Assembly: GCA_050304755.1 (NCBI GenBank)
Contig: JBNLED010000067.1
Span: forward strand, 1-59,909
Length of the DNA: 59,909 bases
DNA from: Polyangia bacterium
GTDB lineage: Bacteria; Myxococcota_A; Polyangia; JAAYKL01
Direction: 5' to 3'
Below the pieces are notes generated by a model. That model saw only the letters and a program-made list of their open reading frames with translations. It did not search any database and was not told the DNA's origin. The translations under genes and the position numbers were made by a program. Shown in pieces: positions 1-49,677 of this stretch (positions are counted from its first letter, which is position 1; each line of letters starts with the position of its first letter).

Positions 1-3
1 CTC

Positions 4-2007: not shown

Positions 2008-2008
2008 G

Positions 2009-11145: not shown

Positions 11146-14100
11146 TTAGTCGATATCGGGCTCGACTGGGCAGAGGTGATCCACGGCGAACTCCTGGCCG
11201 CCGATGGCGACCTGGGTCACCTCGCCCTCGAGCCGCAGGATACCGGTACCCTGGTTGATGCAGCCGAACCCTTCGCACTGTACCAGCACGCCGCCGACTT
11301 CGACCCCGTCGAGATCCTCGAGGTCGTCCGCGTTGCGGAAATCGCCATTGACCTCGAGGTTGACGTTGCCGCCAAACGCGCCGAAGGCGAGGGTGAGGCC
11401 GTGGGGGAGCACCGGGAATTCGAAGATGGCGTTGATGTTGCTGATCCGGAAATCCTGACCGGAGGCGCCGGCCGCGCCCTCGTCCGCCACCATTGCGGCG
11501 CCCTCGTCGGTCCAGGTGAGATCGAAATACTGAAATTCGTCGAAGAAGATGTCGATACCGGAGTCGTTGAGGGTGTCCCCCACCCCGTACGCGCTGTCGA
11601 GGAGGGCGTCCTCGAAGTCCAGGCAGGGGGGATCCGGGGCGACGATCTCATACCCCTCCTCGGCCACGTCGCTCGGCACCATCCGCTCGGCGACGGCGAG
11701 CGCCATGAGAACCTTGTCGTCGATCACCGGGATGCACGCGCCGGTGTAGACCGGGGACGCCGGTGTGGGAACCGTACCGTCGGTGGTGTAGTGGATCTCC
11801 GCGTCCTCGGTCTCGCATGAGAGCTCGACACACACGGAGGTGGAATGGGTCCCCCCTGCGGGATCCATCACGGGGGTCGCCGCCTTGGGCAGGGGCTCTG
11901 ACGGGCAGATGTCGTCAATGACGAACTCCTGGCCGCCGATGCTGAAGCTGTTGATGGGCCCGGTCAAATACAATGCGCCGAGTCCCCGACCGCTGCAGCC
12001 GGGACCGTCGCAGTACAGGTGGACGCCCCCGATGATCGCGTGTTGCAGGTCTATGAAGTCCTCCTCGTTTCGATGATCGCCGTTGATGTTGATATTGACG
12101 TTTCCGCCGTACTCGCCAAAGGCGATCCGCATCCCTTCCAAGAACGGAAAGTCGAAGGCCAGGTTGATATTGTTCACCCACATCTCCAGCCCGGATCCCC
12201 CGGCCATGCCGTCGGTCGACATAGTGGTGCTCCCATCGGCGGTCCATAGGTCGTTCATCCACTGAAAGGGTATTGCCTCCACATCGATTCCGGAGTCGAT
12301 GAAGACGTCCCCCACATGAAACACGTCGTCGTCCCGGCGCGCTTCGAAGTCGACGCAGGGGATCTCCGGCGTCTCGATGGTATAGGTCTCCTCGACTTCA
12401 TCGCTGTCGATCATGAGGGGATGAACCGCGACGGCGTGGAGGACCGTGTCGTCGATCACCGGGACACAGGTGCCGGTGTAGAGAAACGAAGCGGTGGAAG
12501 CCGGGGATCCGTCCCTGGAAAAATAGATGCTCGCCCCGGGTGTCTCGGTCTCCATGTGGACACACTGGGAGCTCGGGTACGCACCCCCCACCGGGTCCAT
12601 CGTCGGGGGGGCCACCTTCTCCAGGTCATCCGCCGGGCAGATATGGTCAATGACGAATTCCTGTCCACCGATGCTGAAGTCGTAGACGGCGCCGGAGAGA
12701 TGCAGGGTCCCGGTGCCCTGACCGCCGCAGCCGGCACCCTGGCAGTAGATCGCGACGCCGCCGATAAGGCTCGGCAGATTCGCGAAGTCCTCCACGTTTT
12801 GGTGGACGCCATTGACACGGATGTTGATGTTCCCCCCGAACTCGCCGAACTGTAGGGTCAATCCGTGGGGCAGGGCAGGAAGGTCGGGCGTTACATTGAT
12901 GTTGCTCACCCAGAGATCCTGTCCCGAGCCGCCGGCGTCCCCTGCGCTGCTCACCGACGCCATGCCCCCTGCCGTCCAGATGTCGTTTGACCACTGGAAC
13001 TCGGTGAAATGGACATCGTATCCGGAGTCCGTCAGCGTATCCCCCACGTGGTATTCGGTCCCCACCGCGGGCGCCTCGAAATCGATGCACGCCAACGCCG
13101 GGTGTTCGATGACATAGGCCTCCTCGGCGATGTCGCTATCAGCCATCCAGTCGTGCCTGGCGAAAGCCCGAATCACTATGTCGTCGTAAACAAAAACACA
13201 AGCACCGGTGTACAGGGTTGACAGCACTGTGGGGAGGCTCCCGTCGGTGGTGTAGTGGATCGTGGCGCCGGGGGTCGAGGTGGTGATGTTCACGCAGATG
13301 GAGGTATCATACGCGCCGCCAACGGGATCCATCTCGGGGGTCGCCACCTTCTCGAGGGGGTCTGCCGGACAGATATCGTCGACGACAAACTCCTGGCCGC
13401 CGATGCTGAAGCTTCCGATTGTCCCTGCGAGCAGCAAGCTCCCGCTCCCCTGACCGTTGCAACCGAAACCCTCGCAGTAGAGGATCGCCCCGCCGATCGT
13501 CTCTCCGTGGAGATCCTCGAAGTTATGGGCGTTTTGCTGATCGCCGTTGATACTGATATTGACGTCTCCACCAAAATCGCCGAACCGGAGTATGATCCCA
13601 TCTGACAGCTCGGGGAAATCGATTTCGACGTTGATGTTACTCAACCAGAGCTCTTGTCCTGAACCGCCGGCCTGTCCCTCGTCCCCGACCGCGGCTTGTC
13701 CCATGTTGTAAAGGGTATTGTCGCTCTGAAGAAACGGTGCAAAGCCGATATCCACCCCCGAATCCGATGTCGTATCCCCGACATGATAGATTTCATCCAA
13801 CGGGAGATCCTCGAAATCGACACATTCGGGTTCAGGTGGACTGCCGGTACCGGTGTCAACGCCGGTGTCCTCTCCGGTTCCGGTATCAAACCCGCCGGTC
13901 CCGGTATCCGTTTCTGTGTCTGTATCCGCATCTGTATCGGTGTCGGTGTCAGCGTCCGTATCCGCGTCCGTATCTGCGTCCATATCAGCATCTGTATCCG
14001 CATCCGTGTCGGCATCTGTGTCCGCATCCGTATCTGCGTCTGTGTCGGCATCCGCATCTGCGTCTGTGTCGGCATCCGTATCTGCGTCCGTGTCGGCATC

Positions 14101-14406
14101 TGTGTCGGCATCCGTATCGGCATCTGTGTCGGCATCCGTATCGGCATCCGTGTCGGCGTCCGTATCGGCATCCGTGTCGGCATCCGTATCGGCATCCGTG
14201 TCGGCATCCGTATCGGCATCCGTGTCGGCGTCCGTATCCGCATCCGTGTCGGCGTCCGTATCCGCGTCTGTGGATGTATCGTTTTCAGAACCCGCGTCGT
14301 TTTCCTCACTGTTGCGGACGTCACAGGCCGCGCCCAACAGGAGAAACAACACAGCAACGGGAATGACCCGCCAAGCTGGGTTAACGTTATTGGCTCTCAT
14401 TTTCAT
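11146..14406 (-). CDS. Large secreted or lipoprotein (1086 aa) with an N-terminal (DADT)n tract and four repeats of an unknown beta-rich domain plus a CHB_HEX_C-like domain.
   Basis: A GGAGG SD precedes the ATG at 14406. The signal peptide has LLGAAC. About 125 aa of perfect DTDA repeats follow. Four repeats of about 210 aa each start with a conserved C-x-DFE...YHVGDT...AGGSGQ(E/D)LW(V/L)SNIN...FGE(F/Y)GGN(V/I)NI...GCxGxG...FSIGGQEFV(V/I)DxICP block. Each then continues with (I/V)(H/Y)(Y/F)TTDGSxPT...YTG, which resembles the chitobiase / beta-hexosaminidase C-terminal domain. Confidence 0.7.
13890..14280. repeat. Coding microsatellite with 12-bp period (gacgccgacacg-type, reading as DTDA on the minus strand), about 390 bp.
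   Basis: The near-perfect period is directly visible in lines 13921-14280 as 'gtatccgcatccgtgtcggcatcc...'. It encodes the (DADT)n tract of the 1086-aa protein. Confidence 0.75.
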
Positions 14407-15030
14407 TGCTACCTCCTCATTTAGGCAAGCTAGTTGATCTGGGCGCAGGGTTTGGAAATCCCCTGGCTATCATTGTGCTGAAAGCTCAAATGGAAGAACC
14501 GTGCCAAGCTGGACAAATTGAAGCTAGAGTATGAAATGAAAGACTTTTTTGCTTTATGGCGTTTTCGACCGCAATAGTTCTGAGGTATGGATTCAGCACC
14601 AAACTGCAACCTGTGTAACGTTACAAGATTACGCCGGTTACCGGGTGGAGCGACAAAGCAAATAACCTTCCTGACCCCCCTATACGGCACAAACTGCACC
14701 TGCCGACGATGCACAGTCTGTCCTTTGGGCAATGCCCATCCGACCCAGAAGACGTGCAGGAGTCTCTACGGCAGGTGCAGGCGTTTCAGCATGTGCGAAA
14801 GACCGAGGGCCGGGAGGCGTGTCCCGCGGGATGGGAGCCGGGCAAGCCGACCCGCAAGGTCGGACCGGATCTCGTCTGGAGAGTCTGGGAAATCTGCAAA
14901 GCGGCTGCTTTACCGACAGTTCAAGGAGCGCTATATCACCTTTGACCCCGGTGTCAGATTGGTGATTTCCGGCCGTGAAAAGAGCCCGTGCACCAGGCCT
15001 TTTTGCGTGTGGATATCGTAACGGAACGAT

Positions 15031-15834
15031 TCAGTCCGGTACGGTGGAATATCCCCTCTGCGTCCACGCCTCGATTCCTCCCTCCATCACCCATACCATC
15101 GGGTAATCGTATTCAATAAGCGTGTCGTATGCGGACTCGCTTCTCACACCCCTCCGACAGTAGAGCACGATGTGCTTGGCGGCATCCACCAGATCCAGGT
15201 TGGCTGCGAGAGTGTCCCAAGTTATCTTGAGAGAACCTTCGATGTGTCCCAAGTTATAGAAAACCTCGTCGACAACGTTTATCAGCAACATATCCTGATC
15301 GGCGGCCGTGAGGCGCTCGTACACCTCGTCGACGGTAATATACTTGCCGTCCGGCCACGGAGTAGAGACACCGGCATCCCCCTCTTTGAGAGAATCGGTG
15401 CCGACACCGGCGTCAGTCTCCGCATCGGTGACGATTTCGCTGTCCGCTGGCCTGTCCGTGTGGGAGTCCCATTCGGAGTCCGTGCCCTCACCGGAGTCTG
15501 CACCCCGGATCGTCTCTGTTTCCGTCAAGGTTTCAGAATCCCCCGAATCGGTCGTGCCCGTCTCCGAATCCGTCCCTGTGTCCGGCTGTGTGTCCCCACT
15601 GGCGGTATCCCCATCAATAGCGCGGGACTCGGTATCCCTATCAATAGCGCCGGACTCGGTATCCGGCTCCGCCCCGGATGTTCCGTCGGTGCCGTCGTCA
15701 GTGTTGCCAGTAGGAGCGTTGCTCTCCGAATCGGTTTCGGTATCGAGGGTTGGGGTCACATCGTGATTGTCCTCGGCGCATCCGCCGAGCAAAAGAAGCA
15801 GGAACGACCCAATAATGGAATAGAGATGTGCCAC
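15031..15834 (-). CDS. Lipoprotein with a long acidic Thr/Asp/Glu/Ser-rich linker and a C-terminal rhodanese (sulfurtransferase) domain.
   Basis: The signal has LLLLLGGC. Low-complexity D/T/E/S/G repeats span about aa 30-150. The C-terminus matches the rhodanese domain across ITVDEVYERL...LINVVDEVFYNLGHIEGSL...IVLYCRRGVRSESAYDTLIEYDY, including the active-site CRRGVRS loop. Confidence 0.7.
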   Translation of the reverse strand: MAHLYSIIGSFLLLLLGGCAEDNHDVTPTLDTETDSESNAPTGNTDDGTDGTSGAEPDTESGAIDRDTESRAIDGDTASGDTQPDTGTDSETGTTDSGDSETLTETETIRGADSGEGTDSEWDSHTDRPADSEIVTDAETDAGVGTDSLKEGDAGVSTPWPDGKYITVDEVYERLTAADQDMLLINVVDEVFYNLGHIEGSLKITWDTLAANLDLVDAAKHIVLYCRRGVRSESAYDTLIEYDYPMVWVMEGGIEAWTQRGYSTVPD

Positions 15835-15956
15835 GACCTTCTTTTCTTTAATCCACTCCTATTCTCATATCACCTACGCGGTCCGCTAAAAATAAAAAAA
15901 ACAGGAAAATTAGAAAAAGTAGATCATCTATTTCGAATAATGAAAAACACGGAAGC

Positions 15957-16010
15957 GAGGGGTGTAGAGTAGCCAGCAGGTTACCCGGCCAGGGCTACTC
16001 TATACCCCTC
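15957..16010. repeat. Long inverted repeat forming a hairpin (18-bp stem with one G-U, 18-nt loop); possible terminator or protein-binding palindrome.
   Basis: GAGGGGTGTAGAGTAGCC at 15957-15974 pairs with GGCTACTCTATACCCCTC at 15993-16010. It lies 14 nt downstream of the stop of the minus-strand gene 16024..17013 and about 120 nt upstream of the start of the minus-strand gene 15031..15834. Confidence 0.5.
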
Positions 16011-24315: not shown

Positions 24316-24367
24316 AGATCGCGCTACGCGCCGACCCTTTCTCTATCTATAGTTTCCGCCGTTGCGT

Positions 24368-25597
24368 TCAACCGGCTTTGGTACGCTCCGAGTCGAGGGT
24401 CTTGCCGGCGCCCCGGCAGTCGGAGCAGTGGGTGGGCTTGGCCCAGGCCCCCAGGGAGACCATCAGCTGGTGCTCCTTGGGCCACACGATGGGGGCCTGG
24501 CAGGCCCCGCATTCGAGGGTGATGGTCTTGGCCTCCTGGAGGAACTGCTTGCACTGCTTGCACGAACGGCGGGGGGGGCTCGTGTGTCCCCGCCGTATCG
24601 CCGAGAGATGGTTTTCCCGGTTCCAGATCCAGGTGTTGTCACAGCCGTCATTCTGGCAGGGGACGCTCTTGTCCTCCATGGTGCCGATCTCCTCGGCGCA
24701 CGCGTTGCAGAGCCGACGGGGGGGATCGGTGTTCCCCTTGACGGCGGCCTCCAGCTGCATCCCCCGGGACCATGTCCAGGTGTTCTCGCAGCCGGTCACC
24801 CGACACCGCACCGGCCGGTCGGTGAGGCGCTTGAAGCGTCGGAAGCACTCGTCGCACATCCTACCCCCGGGCTCGCCGTTGCCGAAGCGCTTGGCCTCCG
24901 CCTGCATGAAACGGGTCCAGACCCAGGTGTTCTCGCACCCCTTGACGCGACACACCTGCTCTTTGTCTTCCGCGTCCCCCATGGCGTCCAGGCAGTCGAC
25001 GCACATCCGCTTCGGCGGCTCGGTCATCCCCCGGGCGGCGGCCTCCAGCTGCATTCCCTTGGTCCACGTCCAGGTGCCCTCGCACTCCCGGACGCGGCAC
25101 GGTACCTGAATCTCCTTCAGCTTGCGGAACTTCTGATAGCACCCTTCGCACATCCGGGCCGGGGGCGCGGAGGTCCCCTCCCCGCCGTCCGCGGCCATCC
25201 GCTCCATGGCGGACCAGGTCCACTTGTTGTCACAGCCCCTCACCCGGCAGGTCACCTCGACGCTCTCCACCGCCTGGGACTTGCCTTTACATGCCTGACA
25301 TATCCGATCCCGGGGGGGCTCCGTGCGTCCCCGCTTGAGCGCCGCGAGCCGGGCCGCCTTGGTCCAGGTCCAGGTGTTTTCGCAGGAGTCGTTGGCGCAG
25401 GGAACCTCCCGGTCCTCGAGCTCGTTGTACTTCGCGTAGCACTCGGGGCACATCCGGGCCGGCGGGTCGGTTTTGCCCTCCCGCATCCAGCGCAGCTGAT
25501 CGACCCCCTCCCATATCCATGTCTTCTCGCACCCGCGCGTACGGCAGGGCATCACCTTGTCCTTCATCCCGCTGAACAACGATGCTTTCAGAGTCAC
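24368..25597 (-). CDS. Cytoplasmic protein built from about 8 tandem 45-48-aa Cys4 repeats (zinc-ribbon-like); family not recognised.
   Basis: Each repeat reads V-(P/T)-C-x3-(G/D/E)-C-(E/D)-N-(T/K)-W-(T/I/V)-W-(T/S)-x15-20-PP-x-R-(M/I/L)-C-x2-C, for example VPCRVRECEGTWTWTKGMQLEAAARGMTEPPKRMCVDC. There is no signal peptide and no TM segment. It lies convergent to the por operon. Confidence 0.7.
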   Translation of the reverse strand: MTLKASLFSGMKDKVMPCRTRGCEKTWIWEGVDQLRWMREGKTDPPARMCPECYAKYNELEDREVPCANDSCENTWTWTKAARLAALKRGRTEPPRDRICQACKGKSQAVESVEVTCRVRGCDNKWTWSAMERMAADGGEGTSAPPARMCEGCYQKFRKLKEIQVPCRVRECEGTWTWTKGMQLEAAARGMTEPPKRMCVDCLDAMGDAEDKEQVCRVKGCENTWVWTRFMQAEAKRFGNGEPGGRMCDECFRRFKRLTDRPVRCRVTGCENTWTWSRGMQLEAAVKGNTDPPRRLCNACAEEIGTMEDKSVPCQNDGCDNTWIWNRENHLSAIRRGHTSPPRRSCKQCKQFLQEAKTITLECGACQAPIVWPKEHQLMVSLGAWAKPTHCSDCRGAGKTLDSERTKAG

Positions 25598-25699
25598 GTC
25601 ACACTCCTTTGTCCCATGACGGTGGTCTCGATAAGAGCGCGTGCGCCCATCCGCCGACTGGAGTTCTATCGTGAAAGCCCCATCACAGCAAGGGGGAGC

Positions 25700-26104
25700 T
25701 CAGCGAACCAGCCCCAGGGTGCGCATGATGGTGGGGAGAAGCCAGCCGTAACCGAGCCCCCAGAGCAGGTTGAGGGTGACGGACTCGGCCGCCCCCCCCT
25801 TGACGACCTGCGTGCGGACGATGACCGCGCCGATGCTGAAGAGCGCGGTGAGGCCGACGGCGGTCCAGAACAGGATCCGGTCGGCGCTCGCCCACCACCC
25901 GGTGGCGAGATAGAACCCCGTCGTCACCACCACGCCGAACAGCAACGCCGCCATGGTGAATGCGAAGGAGAAGAGCCGCCGGTTCGGGACAGGCCCGGCG
26001 GCGCCGTCCTCCCCGACCGCGAGCTGATCGTAGCGGAGCCATACAATCAGAAAGGTCATGCCCGTGACCCCCAGGACGATGAGCATCGGAAATACCAGTT
26101 TCAT
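25700..26104 (-). CDS. Small integral membrane protein (134 aa, about 4 TM) translationally coupled to the upstream TetR gene.
   Basis: Only the C-terminal part of the 348-aa track ORF is credible: MKLVFPMLIVLGVTGMTFLIVWL.... Its ATG at 26104-26102 overlaps the TetR TGA at 26103-26101 (ATGA). The rest of the track ORF overlaps tetR in another frame. Confidence 0.5.
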   Translation of the reverse strand: MKLVFPMLIVLGVTGMTFLIVWLRYDQLAVGEDGAAGPVPNRRLFSFAFTMAALLFGVVVTTGFYLATGWWASADRILFWTAVGLTALFSIGAVIVRTQVVKGGAAESVTLNLLWGLGYGWLLPTIMRTLGLVR

Positions 26105-26673
26105 GGTTGTTCTCCTTTTGAAACGGGGATGGATTTCCCCGGATGTTTCATTCTGTGGAGGCGAAAGAACTCGTGGAAGAGCGCGCTCAGTACCTCCATT
26201 GAAAACGGCGGGTGCACGGCCAGGCTCCCGATGATGATGCAGTAGAACGTCCGGGCCGCCGTCTCCGCTCGGGGGCCGCTCCGCAGTCGGGAGAAGACCT
26301 CGGTGAGAAAGGCGATCCGCAGCGCGTCGAGTCGCTCCATATGCTCGCGGGCGACGGGGTTCGAGACCGCCCACGCGCGGATGGCGATCTCCGGCAGGGG
26401 GCTCCGCTTCTCGAACTCGCCGAGCAGCCCGAGGAGCACCTTGACGGGGGTGTCGCTCCTCTCGATGGCGTGAATGATCGCCGTGGAATCCGCCTCCCAC
26501 GCCTCGAGCAGCTTCACCTTGAAGTGTTGGATATTCTTGAAGTGGTGGTAGAACGAGCCCTTGGTCACCCCGAGGACCTCTGTCATCCGATCGATGGTGA
26601 TGGCCGAGACCCCCTCGGTGCCGAGAATCTCCAGTCCGGTCGCGATCCATTTTTCCTGAGTCTTGGGGGACAT
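26101..26673 (-). CDS. TetR/AcrR-family transcriptional regulator.
   Basis: The N-terminal helix-turn-helix is GLEILGTEGVSAITIDRMTEVLGVTKGSFYHHFKN. Length is 190 aa. Confidence 0.85.
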   Translation of the reverse strand: MSPKTQEKWIATGLEILGTEGVSAITIDRMTEVLGVTKGSFYHHFKNIQHFKVKLLEAWEADSTAIIHAIERSDTPVKVLLGLLGEFEKRSPLPEIAIRAWAVSNPVAREHMERLDALRIAFLTEVFSRLRSGPRAETAARTFYCIIIGSLAVHPPFSMEVLSALFHEFFRLHRMKHPGKSIPVSKGEQP

Positions 26674-26792: not shown

Positions 26793-28202
26793 TCAGTGGA
26801 TGGGTACTGCGGCGAGGTGATCCGCCCCTTCGACGGGCTCGAGCCGTGCCCTGACGAGCCCGCCGGGCGCGAGGTCCCCAGCCGCGAACGCCACTTTGAC
26901 GAAGGTATCGGTGAGCCCCCGCCACTTCCCGTCCCTCTGCTCCTCGACGATCACCTCCCGTACCTGCCCGCGGTGGGCCGCCCTGAAGGCCGCCGCGGTT
27001 CGCTCCCCCAGCGCTCTGACCGCCCGGTTCCGCTCTCGGACCGCCGTCTTCGAGGGCCTCCCCGCGAGCTTCGCGGCGGCGGTGCGGGGTCTCGGAGAGT
27101 AGGAGAAGGCGTGGACGTACGCGGGGTTGAGGGCCTCGAGGGTCGCCATCGTGTTTCGAAAGGCCGCCTCGTCCTCCCCGGGGAATCCGAGGAGCATGTC
27201 GGTGCCGATGGCGATGTCCGGAACGGCGCGTCTCAGGGCGTCGACGGTGGCCAGGTACTCCCCGGCGGTGTAGCCCCGCCGCATGGTCGCGAGGATACCA
27301 TCATCACCGCTTTGGAGGGGCAGGTGGAGATGGGGACAGACCCGGTCGTGCTCCCGGACCACCTCGATGAGGGCCGCGTCCACGGACCAGGGCTCGATGG
27401 AGCTCAGCCGGATGCGCCCCGGGGCGATCCGATCCGCCGCCTCGGCGACGAGCGCCGCCAGGCTCGGGCGGCCTGAAAGATCCTTGCCCCACGCGCCGAG
27501 CTGAACCCCGGTGATCACCACCTCTCCCACGCCCCGTTCCACGAGCCGATCGATCTCCTCGAGTACCTCCGCCACGGGCGTGGACCGCTCCCGCCCCCGC
27601 GCCCGCGGCACGATGCAGTAGGCGCATCCGTGGCTGCACCCGTGCTGAATTTTTAAAAGGGCGCGGGTCCTGCCGCCCAGGGGTTCGAGGGCGTCGAGCG
27701 ATCCGGGGCGCGGTGATGCGCCGGCGATGTCGTGGATCCAGTCCGCCAGGGCGCGGGGATCCGCTTCGAGGCCCCCGCGGGTTTCGATCCGCTCGTCGAT
27801 CCCCTGCCCGAAGCCCTCCACCGCGTTTACGGCGCACCCCACGAATACGACGCGGGCGTCGGGCGCGCGTCGGAGGACTCGGCGGGCCTGTTTCCGGCAA
27901 TCCCGCTCTGCTTCGGCGGTGACGCAACAGGTATTGATGATGACAACATCGACTTCATCGGTAGTATCGGAGATTGTGACGATATCACGGTCCAGGTACC
28001 GCACCAGGGCGCCGCTGTCCGCCTGGTTGGCCCGGCACCCCACCGTAGTGATGGCCACCCTGAGGGGATTTCGATTACCGCTTTCAATCACTTTATACCT
28101 CTCGGTCCACCGAGCCCGGCAAGAGATAGCAGAACTCGGTCCCCGCAACAATGCCTCCCTCCCGAAGCCCTTCAACGTATACGAGCTCAGCCGGACGATC
28201 AA
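26793..28202 (-). CDS. MiaB-family radical-SAM methylthiotransferase (MtaB/RimO-like) with a C-terminal TRAM domain.
   Basis: The N-terminal MTTase domain has VAITTVGCRANQADSGAL. The radical-SAM motif is CSHGCAYCIVP. A C-terminal TRAM-like beta domain is present. The track ORF starts at a TTG and the true start is probably about 30 codons downstream. Confidence 0.8.
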   Translation of the reverse strand: MIVRLSSYTLKGFGREALLRGPSSAISCRARWTERYKVIESGNRNPLRVAITTVGCRANQADSGALVRYLDRDIVTISDTTDEVDVVIINTCCVTAEAERDCRKQARRVLRRAPDARVVFVGCAVNAVEGFGQGIDERIETRGGLEADPRALADWIHDIAGASPRPGSLDALEPLGGRTRALLKIQHGCSHGCAYCIVPRARGRERSTPVAEVLEEIDRLVERGVGEVVITGVQLGAWGKDLSGRPSLAALVAEAADRIAPGRIRLSSIEPWSVDAALIEVVREHDRVCPHLHLPLQSGDDGILATMRRGYTAGEYLATVDALRRAVPDIAIGTDMLLGFPGEDEAAFRNTMATLEALNPAYVHAFSYSPRPRTAAAKLAGRPSKTAVRERNRAVRALGERTAAAFRAAHRGQVREVIVEEQRDGKWRGLTDTFVKVAFAAGDLAPGGLVRARLEPVEGADHLAAVPIH

Positions 28203-31113: not shown

Positions 31114-31379
31114 GCGATTTTGCCGCCAAAACACTCCCGCACGATTGATGAAGCGCACCTTCGTCCAAACGTCCATCTTCTCCATTCCATCCAATCTCCG
31201 AGCCTCCCCGGCAGAGTTCTATTATGAAAAAATTTGAACTTATCAAACCTCACTTTCCGGGTTACAGTTATCACTGCATTCACCTCGCTGAGCTTGAAAA
31301 ACTCGTGCGTTACCTCTGGCCCTTTGAAGGGGGCCGCCCGGCGCATCGATTGCGGTCCCTGGGAAGGAAGGAGACTTTG

Positions 31380-32156
31380 ATGGAACAGCTCGGATTACTC
31401 GCGGCGGCCATGTTCGCCCCCATTAATCTGGGATACACGATTCTGTTGATTGTCATCCTCATCTACTGGGGCCTCGTCATCATCGGGGCGTTGGGCATCG
31501 ACTCCTTCGACTTCGATCTGGACAGCGATGTGGACGCCAACCTGGATGTGGACGCCAACCTGGATGTGGACGCGGATATGGATGTGCACGCGGACGCGGA
31601 TGTGCACGCGGATGCGGATATGGATGCGGACGCGGACGCTGACGCCCACGCCGACGGAGACGGCGACGCGGATGCCCACCACGGCGGCTTCCTCCACGGG
31701 CTGCTCACTTTCTTCAACCTGGGGGAGGTGCCACTGATGGTGTTCGCCAGCGTCCTCGTGCTGTGTATGTGGGCCATCTCCATGACGGTGAACGTGGTGC
31801 TGAACAACGAGTCTTTTATACTGGGGGTGCCCCTGTTCGCGGGGAATCTGTTCGTGAGCTCCATCGTCGCGAAGTTCCTGACGACCCCCATCAAGCACGT
31901 CTTCCGGGCCCTCGACAAGGCCACGGATATCGAGCCGGGACACGACGTCCTCGGCCAGACCTGTGTCATTTCCACCAGCGAGGCGACCGATAGCTTCGGT
32001 CAGGCGACCATCGAGACGGACGGCGCGCCGCTTATCCTCAACGTGGTGACCTACCGGGGAGAGACTTTAAAAAAAGGCCAGGAGGCCGTGGTGATCGACT
32101 ATATCAAGGACAGACGGGTGTACACCGTAAAAAGCAGATGGGACGAGGAGGAGTAA
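31380..32156 (+). CDS. NfeD / YqiJ-like membrane protein (flotillin partner) with an internal Asp-rich tract and a C-terminal OB-fold.
   Basis: A GGAAGGAAGGAG SD lies 6 nt before the ATG at 31380; the track ORF starts earlier at 31224. Two TM blocks flank a D-x-D-x acidic insert ([22 protein letters not shown]...). The C-terminal soluble beta domain ([36 protein letters not shown]) is typical of NfeD short homologues. The stop abuts the flotillin start. Confidence 0.6.
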
Positions 32157-32157
32157 G

Positions 32158-34374
32158 ATGTCGGGAATAGTACCTGGAACAATCGTGTTGAGCCCCTTCG
32201 AGGGGCTGGATCCCACAATCATATTCGGAGCGGTGGGGATCATCGGCGCCATCATCCTGTTTGGCCTGCTGTCGATGCTCCTCAAGTGTTACAAAAAGGT
32301 GAACCAGGGCACGGCCCTCATCCGGAACGGCATGGGGGGCACCAAGGTGAGCTTCTCCGGTATGATGGTATTTCCGGTGATCCACAAAATGGAGATGATG
32401 GAGATCTCCGTCAAGCGGGTGGAGATCGACCGGATGGGGCAGAACGGGCTCATCTGCAAAGACAACATGCGGGCGGACGTCAAGGTGGCGTTCTTCGTCC
32501 AGGTCAACAAGACCCCCCACGATGCGCTCAAGGTGGCCCAGGCCCTCGGGTGCGTCCGCGCCTCCGATCCCCAGTCGCTGATAGAGTTCTTCGACGCCAA
32601 GTTCTCCGAGGCCCTCAAGACCGTGGGCAAGCAGTTTGACTTCGTCGAGCTCTACAACAACCGGCAGCGGTTCAAAGAGGAGATCCTCAAGGTCATCGGC
32701 ACGGACCTCAACGGGTACGTCCTGGACGACGCGGCCATCGACTACCTCGAGCAGACCAGCATCAAATACCTCGACCCCAACAACATCCTGGACGCGGACG
32801 GTATCAAGAAGATCACTGATCTCACGGCCAAGCAGGCGGTGCTCGCCAACGACATCGAGCGGGAGAAACAGAAGATCATCAAGAAGCAGGACGTGGAGGC
32901 CAAGGAGACCATCCTCCAGCTCGAGAAGCAGCAGGCCGAGGCCGAGCAGACCCAGGCCAGGGAGATCGCCGAGATCACGGCCCGCCAGACCGCCGAGGCG
33001 ATGAAGGTGCAGCAGGAGGAGCGGCTCAAGGCGGAGAAGGCCCGCATCATGTCGGACGAGGAGATCGCCATCGCCGAGGAGAACCGGCAGCGGCAGATCA
33101 TCGTGGCGGCCAAGAACAAGGAGCGCACCACCGCGGTGGAGACCGAGCGGGTCAAGAAGGACCAGGAGCTGGAGGCCACCGAGCGGGAGCGTACCGTCAC
33201 CCTGGCGCAGATCGAAAAAGAGAAGGCCGTGGAGGTAGAGAAGCGGAACATCCAGGAGGTGATTCGCGAGCGGGTGAACGTGGAGCGGTCCGTGGTGGAG
33301 CAGGAGGAGAAGATCAAGGACACCAAGGAGTTCGCCACCGCGGAGCGATCGAAGAAGGTGGCCATCACATTGGCGGAGGAGCAGGCCGAGCAGGAGAAGA
33401 TCAAGGTCGTCAAGATCGCGGAGGCCTCCAAGGAGGCGGCCGACCTCAGGGCCAAGGAGCAGATCATCATCGCCGAGGGGCAGCGGGCCGCGTCCGAGAA
33501 AGAGGCGGACGCCCGGAAGATCATCGCGGACGCCACGGCCCAGGAGGAGGCGGTCAAGGGCTTCGGCGAGGCCCGGGCGCTGGAGGCCAAGGCCGAGGCG
33601 CAGGAGAAGTACGGCACCGCGGAGGCGGCGGTCATCGAGCGGAAGGCGACGGCCGAGGCCAAGGGGCTCGAGGCCCAAGCCGTGGCGATAGAGAAGCAGG
33701 GGATGGCCGAGGCCAAGGTTATCGAGAGCAAGGGGATCGCGGTGGCCAAGGGGGAGGAGGCCCACGCGGTGGCTGTGGAGAAGCTCGGGACCGCCGAGGC
33801 CAATGTCTCGCAGCGGAAGTTCCACGCCGAGGCCAAGGGCATCGAGGAGAAGGCCGGGGCCATGAAGCTCTTCGACGACGTGGGTAAGGACCACGAGGAG
33901 TTCAAGCTCAGCCTGGAGAAATCCAAGGAGGTCGAGCTCGCCCAGATCAGCATCCAGACCGAGATCGCCAAGGCCCAGGCGGGCATCGTGGGCGAGGCCC
34001 TCAAGCACGCGAAGATCGACATCGTGGGTGGCGAGACGACCTTCTTCGACAAGATCGTCAGCTCCGTCACCGCCGGCAAGTCGGTGGATCGCATCGTGGA
34101 CCACAGCGGGCTGCTCACGGATGTCCGGCTCTCCCTGCTCGGCGACAAGACCCAGTCCCTCGTCCGCAAGCTGAAGGACGCGGTGTCCAAGTCCGGCATC
34201 GACTCCGGGGACCTCAAGAACCTCTCCGTAGCCGCCCTGCTCTCCAAGATGATCATGAAGGCGGACGACGACCGGACCATCTCACTCCTCGGCAAGCTCT
34301 CGGACACCGCCAAGGAGCTCGGCCTCAATCACGAGAACGCCGCGTCGGTCCTCGGGGACACCAAGAAGAAGTAA
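32158..34374 (+). CDS. Flotillin-like SPFH/Band-7 protein (YqiK/FloT-type) with a very long Glu/Ala/Lys-rich coiled-coil region.
   Basis: An N-terminal TM hairpin is followed by the SPFH core NQGTALIRNGMGGTKVSFSGMMVFPVIHKMEMMEISVKRVEI...DVKVAFFVQV. About 400 aa of EA-repeat coiled coil follow. Total length is 738 aa. Confidence 0.85.
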   Translation: MSGIVPGTIVLSPFEGLDPTIIFGAVGIIGAIILFGLLSMLLKCYKKVNQGTALIRNGMGGTKVSFSGMMVFPVIHKMEMMEISVKRVEIDRMGQNGLICKDNMRADVKVAFFVQVNKTPHDALKVAQALGCVRASDPQSLIEFFDAKFSEALKTVGKQFDFVELYNNRQRFKEEILKVIGTDLNGYVLDDAAIDYLEQTSIKYLDPNNILDADGIKKITDLTAKQAVLANDIEREKQKIIKKQDVEAKETILQLEKQQAEAEQTQAREIAEITARQTAEAMKVQQEERLKAEKARIMSDEEIAIAEENRQRQIIVAAKNKERTTAVETERVKKDQELEATERERTVTLAQIEKEKAVEVEKRNIQEVIRERVNVERSVVEQEEKIKDTKEFATAERSKKVAITLAEEQAEQEKIKVVKIAEASKEAADLRAKEQIIIAEGQRAASEKEADARKIIADATAQEEAVKGFGEARALEAKAEAQEKYGTAEAAVIERKATAEAKGLEAQAVAIEKQGMAEAKVIESKGIAVAKGEEAHAVAVEKLGTAEANVSQRKFHAEAKGIEEKAGAMKLFDDVGKDHEEFKLSLEKSKEVELAQISIQTEIAKAQAGIVGEALKHAKIDIVGGETTFFDKIVSSVTAGKSVDRIVDHSGLLTDVRLSLLGDKTQSLVRKLKDAVSKSGIDSGDLKNLSVAALLSKMIMKADDDRTISLLGKLSDTAKELGLNHENAASVLGDTKKK

Positions 34375-34401
34375 CGTCGGAGCGAATCGGAAGGCCTGGA
34401 C

Positions 34402-37400
34402 ATGGCTGAAGCAGAAGCGAAAAGAGAAGAAACTAAGGAGCAGCTCGCCGGCGGCACCTACGAGATCATCCGGAACCGCCTGAACAACCACGCCGAGGCC
34501 CTCCGGGGACGGCTCGACGCGCTCAACCAGGCGCGGAAAGAGGTGTTCGGATCCATCGAGTCCGCGCTCATCGCCCAGGAACGGGTCACCACCGACAACA
34601 ACTGCGTCCCGCGGGATATGGTGTGCATCGGGGAGCAGTTCCTCTTCGGCTACAATGTCCACCTGGGGCTCAAGAGCGAGTTCAAGGTAGGGGACGTGTT
34701 CTCGGTCTACAGCTACGCGGATCACGCCTTCACCAAGACCGAGCTCACCCTCATCAAGGACAAGCAGTTCCAGGAGGACTTCCGGAATCTCTACCATTAC
34801 TACAAGGCGACCTCATTCTCACAGTTCGCCCGCATCGGCACCAGCCTGTTCATGGTCTTTAGGGTGGGCAAGGACACGGATGCTATCAAGACCTTCAAGT
34901 GGGTGGTGAACGAGGACCACACCCTCACCTATGTGGACAACCGCAGCGACCACGAGTACAGGTTCCCGCCCCAGCACGAGTTCGAGTGGCGGCGGGCGAC
35001 CCGCGATCAGCACCGGGGGGGGGAGTTTCCCCACGTCTCCATCGACGACCGCATTTTTGTGGAGACCACCGGCGGGGACCTGACCGTCAAGGTGGAGGAC
35101 AATACGGAAACGGGCGCCGGCATCTACGCGGAGCCGGTGGACGATCCCGACCAGACCCTGGACGACGCGGAGTTCCACTACGCGGTCCTGGGAAACCTGA
35201 TCCTGCTGAAGATCAAGCCCTACCGGGAGGAGGCGTACCGCTACATCGTCTATAACGAGAAGGTTCAGGAGGCGCGGCGCATCGACACCATCAAGGACGC
35301 CTGCGTGCTCCTCCCCGAGGACCACGGCATCATCTTCTCCAACGGCTACTACCTCCAGAACGGCGAGTTCAAGCTCTTCGAGAGCGAGCTCTCGGACATG
35401 CACTTCCGGAAACGGATCTCGTCGCCCAACGGCGAGGATACCCTCTTCGTGTTCTTCAACCGGGAGAGCGGCACCTACATGCTGCTCGCCTACAATATGA
35501 TCGAGCAGACCGTCGCCACCCCCACCGTCTGCAACGGCTACTCCACCTTCGAGAACGGCGAGATGATCTACTTCAAGTCGGACGGGGAGCCCAAGAAGCA
35601 CCACCCCATCCAGATCTGGCAGACGCCCTTCGTGAGCGCCAACTACGAGGCGCCCCAGAAGAGCGATTCGTTCCTCTACAAGCTGGGCAACCGCGACATC
35701 GTGCGGGCCATGGCCGCCTGCCGCGCCGTGCTCAACCTGGTGGGCAAGGAGGAGAGCTACGCCAACGTCTATGTGGACATCTCCCGGGAGGCCAACGACA
35801 TCCTGGATGCCTACTTCTGGCTCGACAAAGAGGAGGCCGAGAACCTGAGGGAGCCCCTCGAGGGGATCCGCCGGGCCGCCGGGAACGCCATCGAGGAGTT
35901 CGAGAAGGTGGTCCGGCTCCGGAAGGACACCGCCGAGCAGGTGGGGGCCGCCTCCGCGGAGATCAAGGAGATCCTGTCCGGCATCGCCACCCGGCGGTTC
36001 GCCGATATCGGCGACTTCGTGGAGCTGCTGGCCCGCCTCCGGACGGTGCGGGGGCGGACCATCGGCCTCAAGGAACTGCGCTACGTGGACCTGGAGGAGG
36101 TGGCGGCGCTGGAGAAGGTGGTCGAGGAGAACACAGCGAGCCTGGCCAATCGGTGCGTGGCGTTCCTGCTCTCCGATGAGGCGCTCGCGCCCTACGAGCA
36201 GAAGGTGGTGAAACTAAAGGCCGCCATCGAGCCGGTCAAGACGGTGAAGGACGCCAAGTCCCTCGAGTCGGAGATCGTCACCTCCGGGGGTGAGCTGGAG
36301 ATGCTCATCGAGATCGTGAGCAACCTCAAGATTGAGGACGCCCGGGATCGCACCAAGATCATCGACGGGATTTCCGAGATCTACGCCACCCTGAATCAGG
36401 CCCGCTCCACCCTGAGCAACCGCATCAAGTTCCTGGCCTCCGCCGAGGGGGAGGCGGAGTTCGGCTCCCAGATCAAGCTGCTGGACCAGGCGGTGATCAA
36501 CTACCTCGACGTGTGCGACACGCCCGAGAAGTGCGACGAGTACCTCACCAAGATAACGGTTCAGGTGGGGGAGCTGGAGGGGCGCTTCTCCGATTTCGAC
36601 CAGTTTATCATAGAGCTCACCGAGAAGCGGGACGAGATCTACAACGCCTTCGAGTCCCGAAAGCTCTCATTGGTAGAGGCGCGGAACAAGAAGACCGACG
36701 CCTATCTCCGGAGCGCCGAGCGGATCCTGTCGGGAATCAATACCCGGGTACAGCAGCTCACCACCGTCGAGGAGATTAACGGCTACTTCGCCTCCGACCT
36801 CATGGTGGACAAGGTCCGGGATATTATCGAGCAGCTCCGGGAGCTGGACGACATCGTCAAGGCGGACGATATCCAGTCGCGGCTCAAGACCCTGATGCAG
36901 GATACCCTCCGTCAGCTTCGGGATCGCAACGAGCTGTTCGTGGCGGGGGAGAACGTCATCAAGTTCGGCGAGCACCACTTCTCGGTGAACACCCAGGACC
37001 TGGCCCTCACCATCGTGGACCGGGAGGACGGGCTCTACCTGCACCTCACCGGCACCAACTTCTTCGAGCGGATCGACGACCCGCGGATCGAGGAGACGAG
37101 GCCGGTGTGGGACCAGCAGCTGGTCTCGGAGAACGAAGAGGTCTACCGCGGCGAGGTCCTGGCCTACGCCATGCTCAAGGCGCTCCGGGGGGATCCCAAG
37201 GCGTTCGAGGACGCGGCATCCCTCAATGAGGAGTCGCTGGTCCCTGAGGTTCGGGAGTTCATGGCGCCCCTCTACGCCGAGGGGTATGTCAAGGGGGTTC
37301 ACGATGTGGACGCGGCCAAGTACCTGGCGGTGCTCCTCCGAATGGAGGCCACCATCGGGCTGCTCCGGTTCCACCCGCGGGCCAGGGCCCTGGCCATGCT

Positions 37401-39675
37401 CTACTGGCACCAGCTGGGACAAACGGGGAAAGAGCGGCGTGCCGCTTTGGGCTCCAAGCTTCGAGGCGTCGGGGAGATCAACAAGATTTTTCAAAGTCGC
37501 AGGCAGCGGGCGCAGTACCTCCCGGAGCTTCAGACCGAGCTGGAGAATTTCACTCGGGAAGCAGGGCTCTTCGATATCATTTATTGTGCACCGGCGGCCG
37601 AGTATCTCTTCGATGTCCTCACCAACGAGGAGCGGTTCGCCATCAGCGGGGAGGCCCACCGGATCTACCGCGGCCTCATGGATCACCTGGACCGGCGGGG
37701 CGCAACGAAAGCGCTGCAAGAGCCCCTCGACCAGCTGGGGGACCGGTTTGCCGACGCGCTCGTACTGCTCAAGGATTGGGTATCTGCCTTCCTCGAGAGC
37801 CGTCATGAGGAGGCATCCGATGACTACATCGAAGAGGTGGCGGTGCTGTTTATCAACGGCCTCTTCGACAGCCAACTCGTGGTCAGCGCCGAGGTGGAGC
37901 AGGAGATAGTCGGGCTGGTGGGGGATCACCCGGTGCTCGTCGAGGGAAAGGTGACCCTCAACTACAACCGCTTCACCATGAAGCTGACCCGGTTCGAGAT
38001 GGAGACGGTGCCGCTCTTCGAGGCGCACCAGCGGCTGAAAAAAGAGATCGTCGAGGAGGCCACCGATGCGCTCCGGCTGGAGGAGTTCCGCCCGCGGATT
38101 CTCAGCTCGTTCGTGCGCAACCGGCTCATCGACAAGGTGTACCTGCCCCTGGTGGGGGATAACCTGGCCAAACAGATCGGCGTGGTGGGCGCGGAGACCC
38201 GCACCGATCGGATGGGGCTTTTGCTGCTCATCTCCCCGCCGGGCTATGGCAAGACCACCCTGATGGAGTATATCGCCAACCGCCTTGGGGTCATCTTCAT
38301 GAAGATCAACGGCCCCGCCATCGGTCACAAAGTGACCTCTCTCGATCCCGGGGAGGCGCCCAACGCGGCGGCCCGGGAGGAGATGAAGAAGCTCAGCCTC
38401 TCCTTCGAGATGGGCGACAACGTGATGATTTACCTGGACGACATTCAGCACTGCAACCCGGAGTTCCTTCAGAAGTTCATCTCCCTCTGCGACGCCCAGC
38501 GAAAGATCGAGGGGGTGTACAAGGGCCGGACCCGGACCTACGACTTCCGCGGGCGGCGGGTCTGCGTGGTGATGGCGGGCAACCCCTACTCCGAGAGCGG
38601 CGAGGCGTTCAAGATCCCCGACATGCTGGCCAACCGGGCGGACACCTACAACCTGGGGGACATCATCGGCGAGAGCGACGAGGCCTTCAAGCTCAGCTAC
38701 CTGGAGAACGCCCTCACCTCGAGTCCGGTCCTCGGGAAGATGGCCGCCAAGAACTTCAAAGACGTGTACGGCATCATCCGGGCCGCGGCGTCGGGGAGCC
38801 GGGAGGGGATAGACTTCGAGGGGAACTACTCGGGGCCGGAAATCGAGGAGTACATCTCGGTGATGAAGAAGCTCCTCAAGGTCCGCGATGTGATCCTGAA
38901 GGTCAACCAGCAGTACATCTACTCGGCGGCCCAGGCGGACGAGTACCGCACCGAGCCCCCCTTCAAGCTCCAGGGATCGTACCGGAACATGAACCGCATC
39001 ACCGAGAAGGTGCTGCCCATCATGAACGACGAGGAGCTCGTCAACCTGGTGAACGACCACTACGCGAGCGAGTCCCAGACCCTGACCACCGCCTCCGAGG
39101 CCAACCTGCTCAAGTTCAAGGCGCTCACCGACGCCCTCACCGGGCCCGAGGCCGACCGCTGGAACGAGATTAGGAGCACCTTCAACCGGAACCAGCTCCT
39201 CGGCGACGACAGCGATCCCATGCGCCAGGTCATCGCGGTGCTCAGCACGTTCCGGGAGGGGCTCGGCGCCATTCAGGGGACCCTGGAGAGCGGCATCGAG
39301 CAGATGGCGAACAGCCAGCCCATTGTTATTGAGACCTCCCGGGCGGTCTCCCTCGATACTTCCGAGGAGGAGTCGACGGGAATGTTCCAAGCACCGGAGA
39401 GGACCATCCCCGCGGCGGAGAGGACCGTTCCGGTATCAAAGAGGACGGTTCCCGCGGAGGAGACCGTCCGCGTATCGAACACCGATCCCCCACCGGAGGA
39501 CAAGCCCCCGCAGGCACAGAAGAGCGCTTCGCCGTCATCAAAGAAAGCGCTCCGGTCATCGGTGAAGTCGCGCGCCCCGTCCGACCAGAAGACGAGCTCC
39601 CCGGCTCCCAAGAAGGGGGCCTCGACGTCCGCGGCGGCACGGCGGATCATCAATATTCATGACGAGGAGGAGTAA
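34402..39675 (+). CDS. Giant protein (1757 aa) with one MoxR/AAA_5-like ATPase module near the C-terminus; function unknown.
   Basis: A continuous ORF with good codon usage. A GGAAGG SD precedes the ATG, which is 27 nt after the flotillin stop. Walker A LLLISPPGYGKTTL is at about 38230. Walker B MIYLDDIQH is at about 38430, and a MoxR-type sensor region VCVVMAGNPY...IPDMLANRADTY follows. The N-terminal ~450 aa look beta-rich, the middle ~800 aa helical, and the C-terminal tail is Pro/Ser/Lys-rich with three ERT(I/V)P repeats. Confidence 0.7.
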   Translation: MAEAEAKREETKEQLAGGTYEIIRNRLNNHAEALRGRLDALNQARKEVFGSIESALIAQERVTTDNNCVPRDMVCIGEQFLFGYNVHLGLKSEFKVGDVFSVYSYADHAFTKTELTLIKDKQFQEDFRNLYHYYKATSFSQFARIGTSLFMVFRVGKDTDAIKTFKWVVNEDHTLTYVDNRSDHEYRFPPQHEFEWRRATRDQHRGGEFPHVSIDDRIFVETTGGDLTVKVEDNTETGAGIYAEPVDDPDQTLDDAEFHYAVLGNLILLKIKPYREEAYRYIVYNEKVQEARRIDTIKDACVLLPEDHGIIFSNGYYLQNGEFKLFESELSDMHFRKRISSPNGEDTLFVFFNRESGTYMLLAYNMIEQTVATPTVCNGYSTFENGEMIYFKSDGEPKKHHPIQIWQTPFVSANYEAPQKSDSFLYKLGNRDIVRAMAACRAVLNLVGKEESYANVYVDISREANDILDAYFWLDKEEAENLREPLEGIRRAAGNAIEEFEKVVRLRKDTAEQVGAASAEIKEILSGIATRRFADIGDFVELLARLRTVRGRTIGLKELRYVDLEEVAALEKVVEENTASLANRCVAFLLSDEALAPYEQKVVKLKAAIEPVKTVKDAKSLESEIVTSGGELEMLIEIVSNLKIEDARDRTKIIDGISEIYATLNQARSTLSNRIKFLASAEGEAEFGSQIKLLDQAVINYLDVCDTPEKCDEYLTKITVQVGELEGRFSDFDQFIIELTEKRDEIYNAFESRKLSLVEARNKKTDAYLRSAERILSGINTRVQQLTTVEEINGYFASDLMVDKVRDIIEQLRELDDIVKADDIQSRLKTLMQDTLRQLRDRNELFVAGENVIKFGEHHFSVNTQDLALTIVDREDGLYLHLTGTNFFERIDDPRIEETRPVWDQQLVSENEEVYRGEVLAYAMLKALRGDPKAFEDAASLNEESLVPEVREFMAPLYAEGYVKGVHDVDAAKYLAVLLRMEATIGLLRFHPRARALAMLYWHQLGQTGKERRAALGSKLRGVGEINKIFQSRRQRAQYLPELQTELENFTREAGLFDIIYCAPAAEYLFDVLTNEERFAISGEAHRIYRGLMDHLDRRGATKALQEPLDQLGDRFADALVLLKDWVSAFLESRHEEASDDYIEEVAVLFINGLFDSQLVVSAEVEQEIVGLVGDHPVLVEGKVTLNYNRFTMKLTRFEMETVPLFEAHQRLKKEIVEEATDALRLEEFRPRILSSFVRNRLIDKVYLPLVGDNLAKQIGVVGAETRTDRMGLLLLISPPGYGKTTLMEYIANRLGVIFMKINGPAIGHKVTSLDPGEAPNAAAREEMKKLSLSFEMGDNVMIYLDDIQHCNPEFLQKFISLCDAQRKIEGVYKGRTRTYDFRGRRVCVVMAGNPYSESGEAFKIPDMLANRADTYNLGDIIGESDEAFKLSYLENALTSSPVLGKMAAKNFKDVYGIIRAAASGSREGIDFEGNYSGPEIEEYISVMKKLLKVRDVILKVNQQYIYSAAQADEYRTEPPFKLQGSYRNMNRITEKVLPIMNDEELVNLVNDHYASESQTLTTASEANLLKFKALTDALTGPEADRWNEIRSTFNRNQLLGDDSDPMRQVIAVLSTFREGLGAIQGTLESGIEQMANSQPIVIETSRAVSLDTSEEESTGMFQAPERTIPAAERTVPVSKRTVPAEETVRVSNTDPPPEDKPPQAQKSASPSSKKALRSSVKSRAPSDQKTSSPAPKKGASTSAAARRIINIHDEEE

Positions 39676-46902: not shown

Positions 46903-47121
46903 CCTCCATTCTTCCATCCGATAGTCGGCGGTTTTTCCCATCGCTCATCCTGATTGTTGCTCCGGATATTGTGTCGATAGTGGCACATTATGGCACATGT
47001 TTTGTGCCTAGAATCTTAAATATCCAAACAATGCAATTGTTTATGGCTTAAAGCCAAGTTGGCATAAATAATGCTGATTCCCTGTGCCAGACCACGAGGA
47101 CCGAGATTCGGGGAGGCCAAT

Positions 47122-49656: not shown

Positions 49657-49677
49657 TTTTTAGCCCGAAACGGGCGA

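Follow-up and report, generated by a model that had tools for sequence, protein, structure and literature searches.

A rare bacterial protein family with a fixed 7+1 array of predicted treble-clef zinc fingers

Arrays of many zinc fingers characterise eukaryotic regulation and are found very rarely in bacteria. On contig JBNLED010000067.1 of a Polyangia bacterium (Myxococcota_A; GenBank assembly GCA_050304755.1), which was analysed over its whole length of 59,909 nucleotides (nt) and is referred to as the window in the following, the open reading frame (ORF) 24368..25597 on the minus strand encodes a protein of 409 amino acids (aa) that consists almost entirely of Cys-rich repeats. This locus raises the question of what kind of array these repeats form and what it would bind. 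The structural part of the answer can be given with considerable confidence: the protein is predicted to be a string of eight small treble-clef-like metal fingers, seven of one canonical type and a terminal one of a known domain family. The functional part, a scaffold for an anionic polymer, is proposed far more tentatively.

The array comprises seven canonical units of 49-50 aa each (C-x4-C ... W-x-W ... PP-x-R-M-C-x2-C), followed by one terminal unit with the layout C-x2-C...C-x2-C. The first Cys residues of successive units are spaced by 49, 50, 50, 49, 49, 49 and 49 residues. The pattern C-x4-C-x(24-30)-C-x2-C occurs seven times, and in 20,000 shuffled versions of the sequence at most three times; a hidden Markov model (HMM) of the unit detects seven strong domains (51-69 bits each) and none elsewhere in the six-frame translation of the window. 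Mutual identity of the units inside the protein is 35-43%, and no tandem repeat was found in the gene at the DNA level. The protein contains 17 Trp, 4 His and 32 Cys residues (7.8%), the latter being predicted to form eight Zn(Cys)4 sites. A preliminary description of this DNA, made by a model from the sequence, had already presented the protein as almost entirely tandem Cys4 repeats, and the periodic Cys spacing, the shuffles and the unit HMM agree with it. Its count of eight repeats plus a degenerate ninth has to be revised to seven plus one, the divergent C-terminal unit being real; this unit has four Cys (C363, C366, C391, C394) instead of six. The period of about 47 aa given there was too short, and the first knuckle, read as C-x-x-G-C, is C-x4-C (C-x3-G-C, with Gly in five of the seven units). 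From the allegedly invariant signature N-T-W-T-W, W-x-W is kept in all seven canonical units and the exact string in two. In detail, the gene and its units are arranged as follows.

24368..25597, minus strand: complete coding sequence of the 7+1 treble-clef zinc-finger array protein (predicted), 409 aa, GTG start, stop included
25604..25609, minus strand: Shine-Dalgarno sequence AAGGAG, 6 nt 5' of the GTG start, as read from the sequence
25556..25597, minus strand: putative N-terminal cap, aa 1-14 (111 family members aligned; model with a short helix at aa 5-8)
25409..25555, minus strand: canonical unit 1, aa 15-63, Cys 18/23/50/53 (unit HMM 62.8 bits; strand-knuckle-strand-helix-loop-helix in the model)
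25259..25408, minus strand: canonical unit 2, aa 64-113, Cys 67/72/100/103 (unit HMM 51.2 bits; model)
25109..25258, minus strand: canonical unit 3, aa 114-163, Cys 117/122/150/153 (unit HMM 58.4 bits; model)
24962..25108, minus strand: canonical unit 4, aa 164-212, Cys 167/172/199/202 (unit HMM 65.1 bits; model)
24815..24961, minus strand: canonical unit 5, aa 213-261, Cys 216/221/248/251 (unit HMM 60.2 bits; model)
24668..24814, minus strand: canonical unit 6, aa 262-310, Cys 265/270/297/300 (unit HMM 68.7 bits; model)
24521..24667, minus strand: canonical unit 7, aa 311-359, Cys 314/319/346/349 (unit HMM 61.3 bits; model)
24398..24520, minus strand: terminal unit, apparently of zf_Tbcl type, aa 360-400, Cys 363/366/391/394 (terminal-unit HMM 56.6 bits; PF13451 13.8 bits)

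The ORF is a genuine gene, since it has the Shine-Dalgarno sequence listed above and a coding-type bias in GC content (0.89 at third against 0.54 at second codon positions), and since the sister assembly GCA_050303475.1 (locus L008) holds an independently called 409-aa gene with 408/409 aa identity; four of the five nt differences between the two copies are synonymous third-position changes. An exact database look-up of the 409-aa sequence returned no record; the sister copy differs from it by one substitution. The protein has no N-terminal hydrophobic segment in its sequence, which fits a cytoplasmic location. A 627-aa ORF on the opposite strand (24362..26245, plus strand), which runs antisense over this gene and the membrane-protein gene upstream of it, was rejected as a high-GC shadow; a gene caller could pick it by mistake.

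AlphaFold2 predicts the full-length protein from a 36-sequence alignment with a mean predicted local distance difference test (pLDDT) score of 93.6 and a predicted template modelling score (pTM) of 0.61, and a single unit from 66 aligned units with a pLDDT of 94.6. According to DSSP of these models, each unit consists of strand, Cys knuckle, strand, helix, loop and helix, with C-x2-C opening the second helix. In unit 1, for example, C18/C23 lie between strands 14-17 and 26-29, and C50-x2-C53 marks the start of helix 51-59; this pattern recurs eight times. The fold of the unit is thus modelled as treble-clef-like, with the first Cys pair in a beta-hairpin knuckle and the second at a helix N-terminus. 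Zinc ribbons, to which the units had been likened at first sight, were considered and rejected because of the secondary structure of the models, in which there is one hairpin per unit and the second Cys pair sits on the helix N-terminus; the models Zn_ribbon_8 and DZR gave stray weak matches in single family members.

Within this fold, one structural Zn(II) would be held in each finger by four invariant Cys, the ligand set and the fold together suggesting zinc as the metal. The chain would run from the C-x4-C of the hairpin knuckle through helix 1 (R-x2-Q-L-E-A) and the PP-x-R-M loop to the second helix, which opens with C-x2-C and whose tail (F..L.D[RK]xVPC) would lead straight into the hairpin of the next unit. 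A family motif at the N-terminus, F-[GA]-S-L-[GA]-D-x-F..K-x-V-P-C in the 111 members aligned, mimics this linker, and the N-terminus MTLKASLFSG of our protein aligns with it. The motif would represent a cap standing in for the absent preceding unit, and as such is indirect evidence for a defined interface between units. Seven units, the terminal unit and the cap would probably make up a rigid rod of fixed length.

Two groups of side chains recur in the units. The Trp residues at positions +4 and +6 after the knuckle are replaced in the family solely by V, F, L, I or Y, and their position matches that of the core Phe of C2H2 fingers; for these reasons, the Trp pair probably belongs to the hydrophobic core rather than to a ligand-stacking surface. 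The preliminary description had invoked it in proposing a nucleic-acid- or protein-binding array, a proposal of which the tandem array of Cys4 metal fingers stands and the suggested kind of ligand is still plausible. The polar and basic residues found in every unit are Arg +8 and Gln +11 on helix 1, an Arg that follows the first Cys and another that stands two positions ahead of the third.

None of the solved structures resembles the unit or the array. The best Foldseek matches are finger arrays of CTCF (E 0.06), and searches of PDB sequences and profiles with the single protein, the unit profile and the family profile gave weak C2H2 matches, the best to ZNF410 (E 0.0013-0.16), in addition to SGNH matches to a tail that is fused to some homologues. 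C2H2 arrays such as TFIIIA, CTCF, KLF/WT1 and ZNF410 are likewise tandem beta-beta-alpha metal fingers, the first half of our unit (C-x4-C-x3-aromatic...L) is KLF/GLI-like, and they are the best, though non-significant, matches overall (E 0.001-0.2). In contrast to these, the unit has no His ligands and no His at the helix positions of the C2H2 set C-x2-4-C-x12-H-x3-5-H, its second ligand pair, a C-x2-C, follows about 27 residues further on, on a second helix, and it measures 49 aa instead of 28. Helix residues, which vary between the units of C2H2 arrays, are conserved between units in the family described here.

Searches with Pfam and NCBIfam found nothing above cutoff in the target protein, and the PADLOC defence models gave no match. 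Below the gathering cutoff of 24 bits, PF13451 (zf_Tbcl, formerly zf-trcl, a 'Probable treble clef domain' of unknown function) scores 13.8 bits (E 0.06) at aa 360-399 only. The equivalent terminal unit of the homologues P0010 (30.5 bits) and P0075 (24.8 bits) passes this cutoff, and PF13451 matches at E<=0.1 in 16 of 36 family members. The layout of PF13451, two C-x2-C pairs about 25-28 residues apart in about 45 aa, is found in the terminal unit and, owing to the C-x4-C knuckle, not in the canonical ones. Because the unit of these homologues passes the cutoff, the terminal unit is assigned by sequence to zf_Tbcl. When 229 canonical units were aligned by hhalign to 36 terminal units, which were the family's own and not the Pfam seed of PF13451, a probability of 92.9% was obtained (E 3.6e-7, 37 columns). 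The canonical units are therewith a divergent C-x4-C subtype of zf_Tbcl that is undetected by Pfam and NCBIfam and that differs from the parent domain in its knuckle, in the W-x-W / Q-L / PP-x-R-M signature and in the fixed 7+1 array. The view that the repeat belongs to no named family consequently holds for the canonical unit, which has no Pfam or NCBIfam model, and fails for the terminal one; a confident match to a family of known function, by which its novelty was to be judged, did not turn up.

The protein is not restricted to one genome. A word-indexed search yielded 92 homologues with E-values down to 1e-128 and 28-48% identity, all of them 'hypothetical', the named sources being metagenome-assembled genomes (MAGs) of Deltaproteobacteria and Polyangia as well as of Lentisphaeria and Victivallales. 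Conservation outside this genome, the absence of which would have weakened the novelty claimed in the preliminary description, thus extends over Myxococcota and Lentisphaeria. An exhaustive search of 1.84 billion representative proteins with the unit-profile HMM retrieved 166 proteins at E<=1e-3, of which 76 were at E<=1e-30; in most of the top matches, 7-8 stretches were matched. The family, with 166 proteins among 1.84 billion representatives, is rare, and outside such arrays the unit is almost absent. A single-protein contig scan found one Lentisphaeria locus, a metagenome contig scan five loci, and a viral contig scan no family member.

All ligand Cys are invariant or nearly so in 36 homologues of 33-42% identity, and a strict pattern of exactly seven canonical units and one terminal unit is kept in 25 of the 36. 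Units at the same position of different proteins are 44% identical, compared with 36% for units at different positions, and several unit columns carry residues specific to one unit. Since same-position units are more alike and have signatures of their own, the array is old and fixed in length rather than a fast-evolving repeat. Variants were also observed. In a subgroup (P0083-P0090 and P0092), some second knuckles read C-x2-H instead of C-x2-C, and long R/E/G/D-rich low-complexity inserts with poly-Arg/Lys tracts lie between units. P0203 (118 aa, on a 782-nt ENA contig) is near-identical to the target in the N-terminus and unit 1, after which the sequence is unrelated; either the assembly is chimeric here, or a close relative has a copy that was truncated or rearranged.

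Domains fused to the array give hints at its function in some relatives. About one third of the long members (P0003, P0010, P0013, P0037 and others) carry a C-terminal SGNH/GDSL-like domain of about 270 aa, which the target itself lacks. In all 24 cases in which block I was found, Asp or Glu takes the place of the nucleophile Ser (GD[DE] vs GDS), and alignment to solved GDSL lipases confirms GDS vs GDD. Because of this replacement, the domain is probably not a serine esterase. Its sequence has the look of a pseudo-esterase, with the block III Asn and the block V His frequently missing as well, and some of these domains match the Pfam entry 'NonGDSL' (PF25182), for which literature searches found nothing. 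A precedent for a dead SGNH-like domain tied to mRNA recruitment is the OSK domain of Oskar, which, as described in PMC2848206 and PMC12247748, has the SGNH/GDSL fold with a disrupted triad in a non-enzymatic binding protein. Its origin and context are unrelated to those of the family, and the comparison applies to the fused homologues, not to the target. A metagenomic protein of 1769 aa (P0162) combines six units with TPR repeats and an SF2 helicase core (Helicase_C above, DEAD just below cutoff) and is the sole such architecture found.

The genomic surroundings differ from clade to clade. Upstream of the target lie genes for a TetR regulator, a small membrane protein and an MtaB-like radical-SAM enzyme, a thioredoxin gene is 3 kb away, and downstream the porGDAB cluster with a 2Fe-2S/4Fe-4S protein is convergent, as noted in the preliminary description. 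In none of the homologue contexts examined (at least 10) does a por cluster adjoin the family gene; a functional link to the por operon was therefore ruled out and the adjacency is probably irrelevant. In one Myxococcota clade (L002, L007, L011, L015), whose members are up to 83% identical, the family gene divergently adjoins tig-clpP-clpX-lon and has a convergent MutT-type Nudix gene. In Lentisphaeria, OmpA and then a MutT-type Nudix gene follow downstream, and genes for acyl-ACP thioesterase, polysaccharide deacetylase and a penicillin-binding protein are nearby. The Nudix gene (PF00293 + PF14815) is adjacent or two genes away (L002 7392-7796, L007 7254-7589, L003 8968-9540, L006 8829-9302), its products are 31-33% identical across phyla, and the window contains no MutT-like gene. 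The remaining contexts are unrelated.

Some further observations concern the immediate vicinity of family genes. The membrane-protein gene upstream of the target (25700..26098, minus strand; 132 aa, 134 aa in L008) lies between the TetR gene and the target, has no Pfam match and stops 102 nt upstream of it. Without a terminator-like site on that strand, the gap makes co-transcription of the two genes possible; the promoter and terminator scan gave nothing exceeding shuffle expectation. A UPF0004/radical-SAM methylthiotransferase (MtaB/MiaB-like) is encoded within a few kb of the family gene in the window (26793..28202, minus strand) and in L012 (10576-11901), and its proximity in two unrelated contexts may be coincidence.

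Based on these data, we propose that the protein, in which no catalytic motif was seen, is a cytoplasmic, non-catalytic scaffold. Arg/Lys around the knuckle and before C-x2-C, together with Arg and Gln on helix 1, would present the same surface seven times, provided that these residues are exposed. If the recurrent Arg and Gln are contacts, the ligand is repetitive, and the array would bind a repetitive anionic ligand multivalently. RNA or another nucleic acid is the first choice in view of the fusion to a helicase, the inserts rich in RG, the Nudix neighbours and the dead SGNH-like domain, for which Oskar offers a precedent; in Lentisphaeria, the array would couple ligand binding to that dead domain. 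As an identification of the ligand this remains doubtful, albeit foremost among the candidates ranked here, whereas the explanation as a whole, in which structure and anionic-polymer scaffold are taken together, is better placed and still tentative.

Several points weigh against this proposal. The excess of Lys and Arg over Asp and Glu is +13 in the target and ranges from +1 to +20 across family members. A charge of about -16 comes from eight Zn(Cys)4 centres. Protein and metal centres together would leave the holo-protein near neutral, unlike typical nucleic-acid binders, and the conserved Arg may serve to compensate the thiolate charge. The helicase fusion is known from a single protein, and Cys-free R/G/D/E-rich low-complexity inserts occur in 12 of 230 members (5%). 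The same putative contact residues in all units argue against sequence-specific reading and fit a purely structural role equally well. No operon partner is common to the contexts examined, and literature searches found no paper on PF13451/zf-trcl or on the family described here.

The alternative ranked next is a protein-protein adaptor or scaffold, in which an extended peptide, a filament or multiple copies of one partner would dock onto the rod, which might have a role in proteostasis or in the cell-envelope machinery. LIM arrays of treble-clef fingers are classic protein adaptors, and the likeness is one of working principle: rigid strings of non-catalytic Cys-rich fingers that act as binding scaffolds. 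A holo-protein of near-neutral charge is better suited to a protein ligand than to a polyanion, a defined partner geometry agrees with the fixed number of units and with their individual signatures, the helicase-bearing member is fused to TPR repeats, and the neighbourhood of tig-clpP-clpX-lon fits as well. This synteny, however, is confined to one clade of close relatives, and no partner gene is conserved across clades. In addition, searches by sequence and by structure gave no match to LIM or other adaptor fingers, LIM domains having two interleaved fingers each and mixed Cys/His/Asp ligands. We consider such an adaptor unlikely, though, like membrane lipid as the ligand, it has to be taken seriously as a rival.

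Less probable again is a peripheral membrane array, in which basic knuckles like the phosphate pocket of FYVE and C1 domains would bind anionic phospholipid by the avidity of seven copies, and which in Lentisphaeria would place a lipase-like module at the membrane. FYVE domains have eight Cys, two cross-braced Zn and the motifs WxxD, R(R/K)HHCR and RVC. The FYVE model (PF01363) matches 14 of 36 members at E<=0.1 (best 9.5e-11) and exceeds its cutoff of 27.8 bits in a few homologues, among them P0093 (29.7 bits); weak C1_1 matches occur in five members. Both folds are treble-clef based, and the likeness to FYVE comprises the CxxC, the basic Cys knuckle and an R-[VM]-C-x2-C-helix spacing across the unit junction, with Arg at the FYVE R(+1) position after the knuckle in 57% and at the 'RVC' position before the third Cys in 70% of units. 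The fused domain has a GDSL/'lysophospholipase L1-like' fold, and lipid and envelope genes lie near the family gene in Lentisphaeria. The target, however, scores 16.1 bits at aa 247-304, and the match crosses the junction of two units and takes in three of FYVE's four Cys pairs, without the HH of R(R/K)HHCR and without WxxD. Each unit is predicted to bind one Zn, and FYVE's third Cys pair is missing, R-M-C and the Arg after the knuckle being the sole counterparts of FYVE motifs. No FYVE structure appeared at meaningful scores in PDB profile or fold searches, literature searches for FYVE with Myxococcota found nothing, the SGNH-like domain has no nucleophile, and no amphipathic or hydrophobic element for membrane insertion is evident. 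The FYVE match is best read from the sequences as resemblance between treble clefs and not as membership.

Least probable of all is a zinc or redox function, in which the 32 thiolates would store zinc or free it on oxidation (cf. Hsp33, the DnaJ zinc centre, RsrA), or would hold Fe in a chain of rubredoxin-like centres linked to the POR/ferredoxin genes: the high Cys content, a weak match to the DnaJ central Cys-rich domain (PF00684, DnaJ_CXXCXGXG; 15.2 bits), the convergent porGDAB and iron-sulfur genes and the thioredoxin gene are set against a DnaJ score far under the cutoff of 32.7 with no CXXCXGXG motif, a por adjacency missing in every homologue context examined, conserved non-ligand residues and a confident rigid fold typical of structural rather than storage sites, and one metal site per 49-aa unit, probably too distant from the next for electron hopping.

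Beyond the target locus, the window shows further features. The RuvB encoded in it has its closest relatives among Myxococcota and Polyangia proteins. Its GC content ranges from 0.74 at the RecG end (1..4000) to 0.555 at 14001..16000, a wide span for a single contig that points to islands of differing origin or to a mis-join. On the plus strand, 31224..39675 holds two large ORFs without Pfam match (310 and 738 aa) followed by a 1757-aa protein with DUF3686, DUF7902 and AAA domains; DUF3686 is labelled 'ATPase involved in DNA repair', and the three genes may form a system not yet characterised. With two sulfatases, an FGE-sulfatase/VWA protein and a second VWA protein (2009..4972, 44956..46902, 47071..51573), the window is sulfatase-rich for a Myxococcota-like MAG.

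In summary, the family is real, conserved and rare. The parent treble-clef domain is known, and the C-x4-C subtype in a fixed 7+1 array is new. Eight confidently predicted metal sites, a layout kept across two phyla and the lack of a solved structural relative set it apart, and a profile is gained for a subtype missed by current domain databases. As a plain structural adaptor, the protein would be of modest, family-level interest. It is improbable, if slightly less so than a zinc or redox role, that the family represents a hitherto unrecognised class of prokaryotic modular repeat binders, in which a fixed-length eight-finger rod measures or reads RNA, DNA or another linear polymer unit by unit; such a reader could be the bacterial equivalent of eukaryotic poly-zinc-finger, PUF or TALE-type arrays and could derive specificity from its unit-specific residues. 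Should the rod turn out to bind a polymer in modular fashion, interest in it would rise sharply, and it would be a possible scaffold for engineering.

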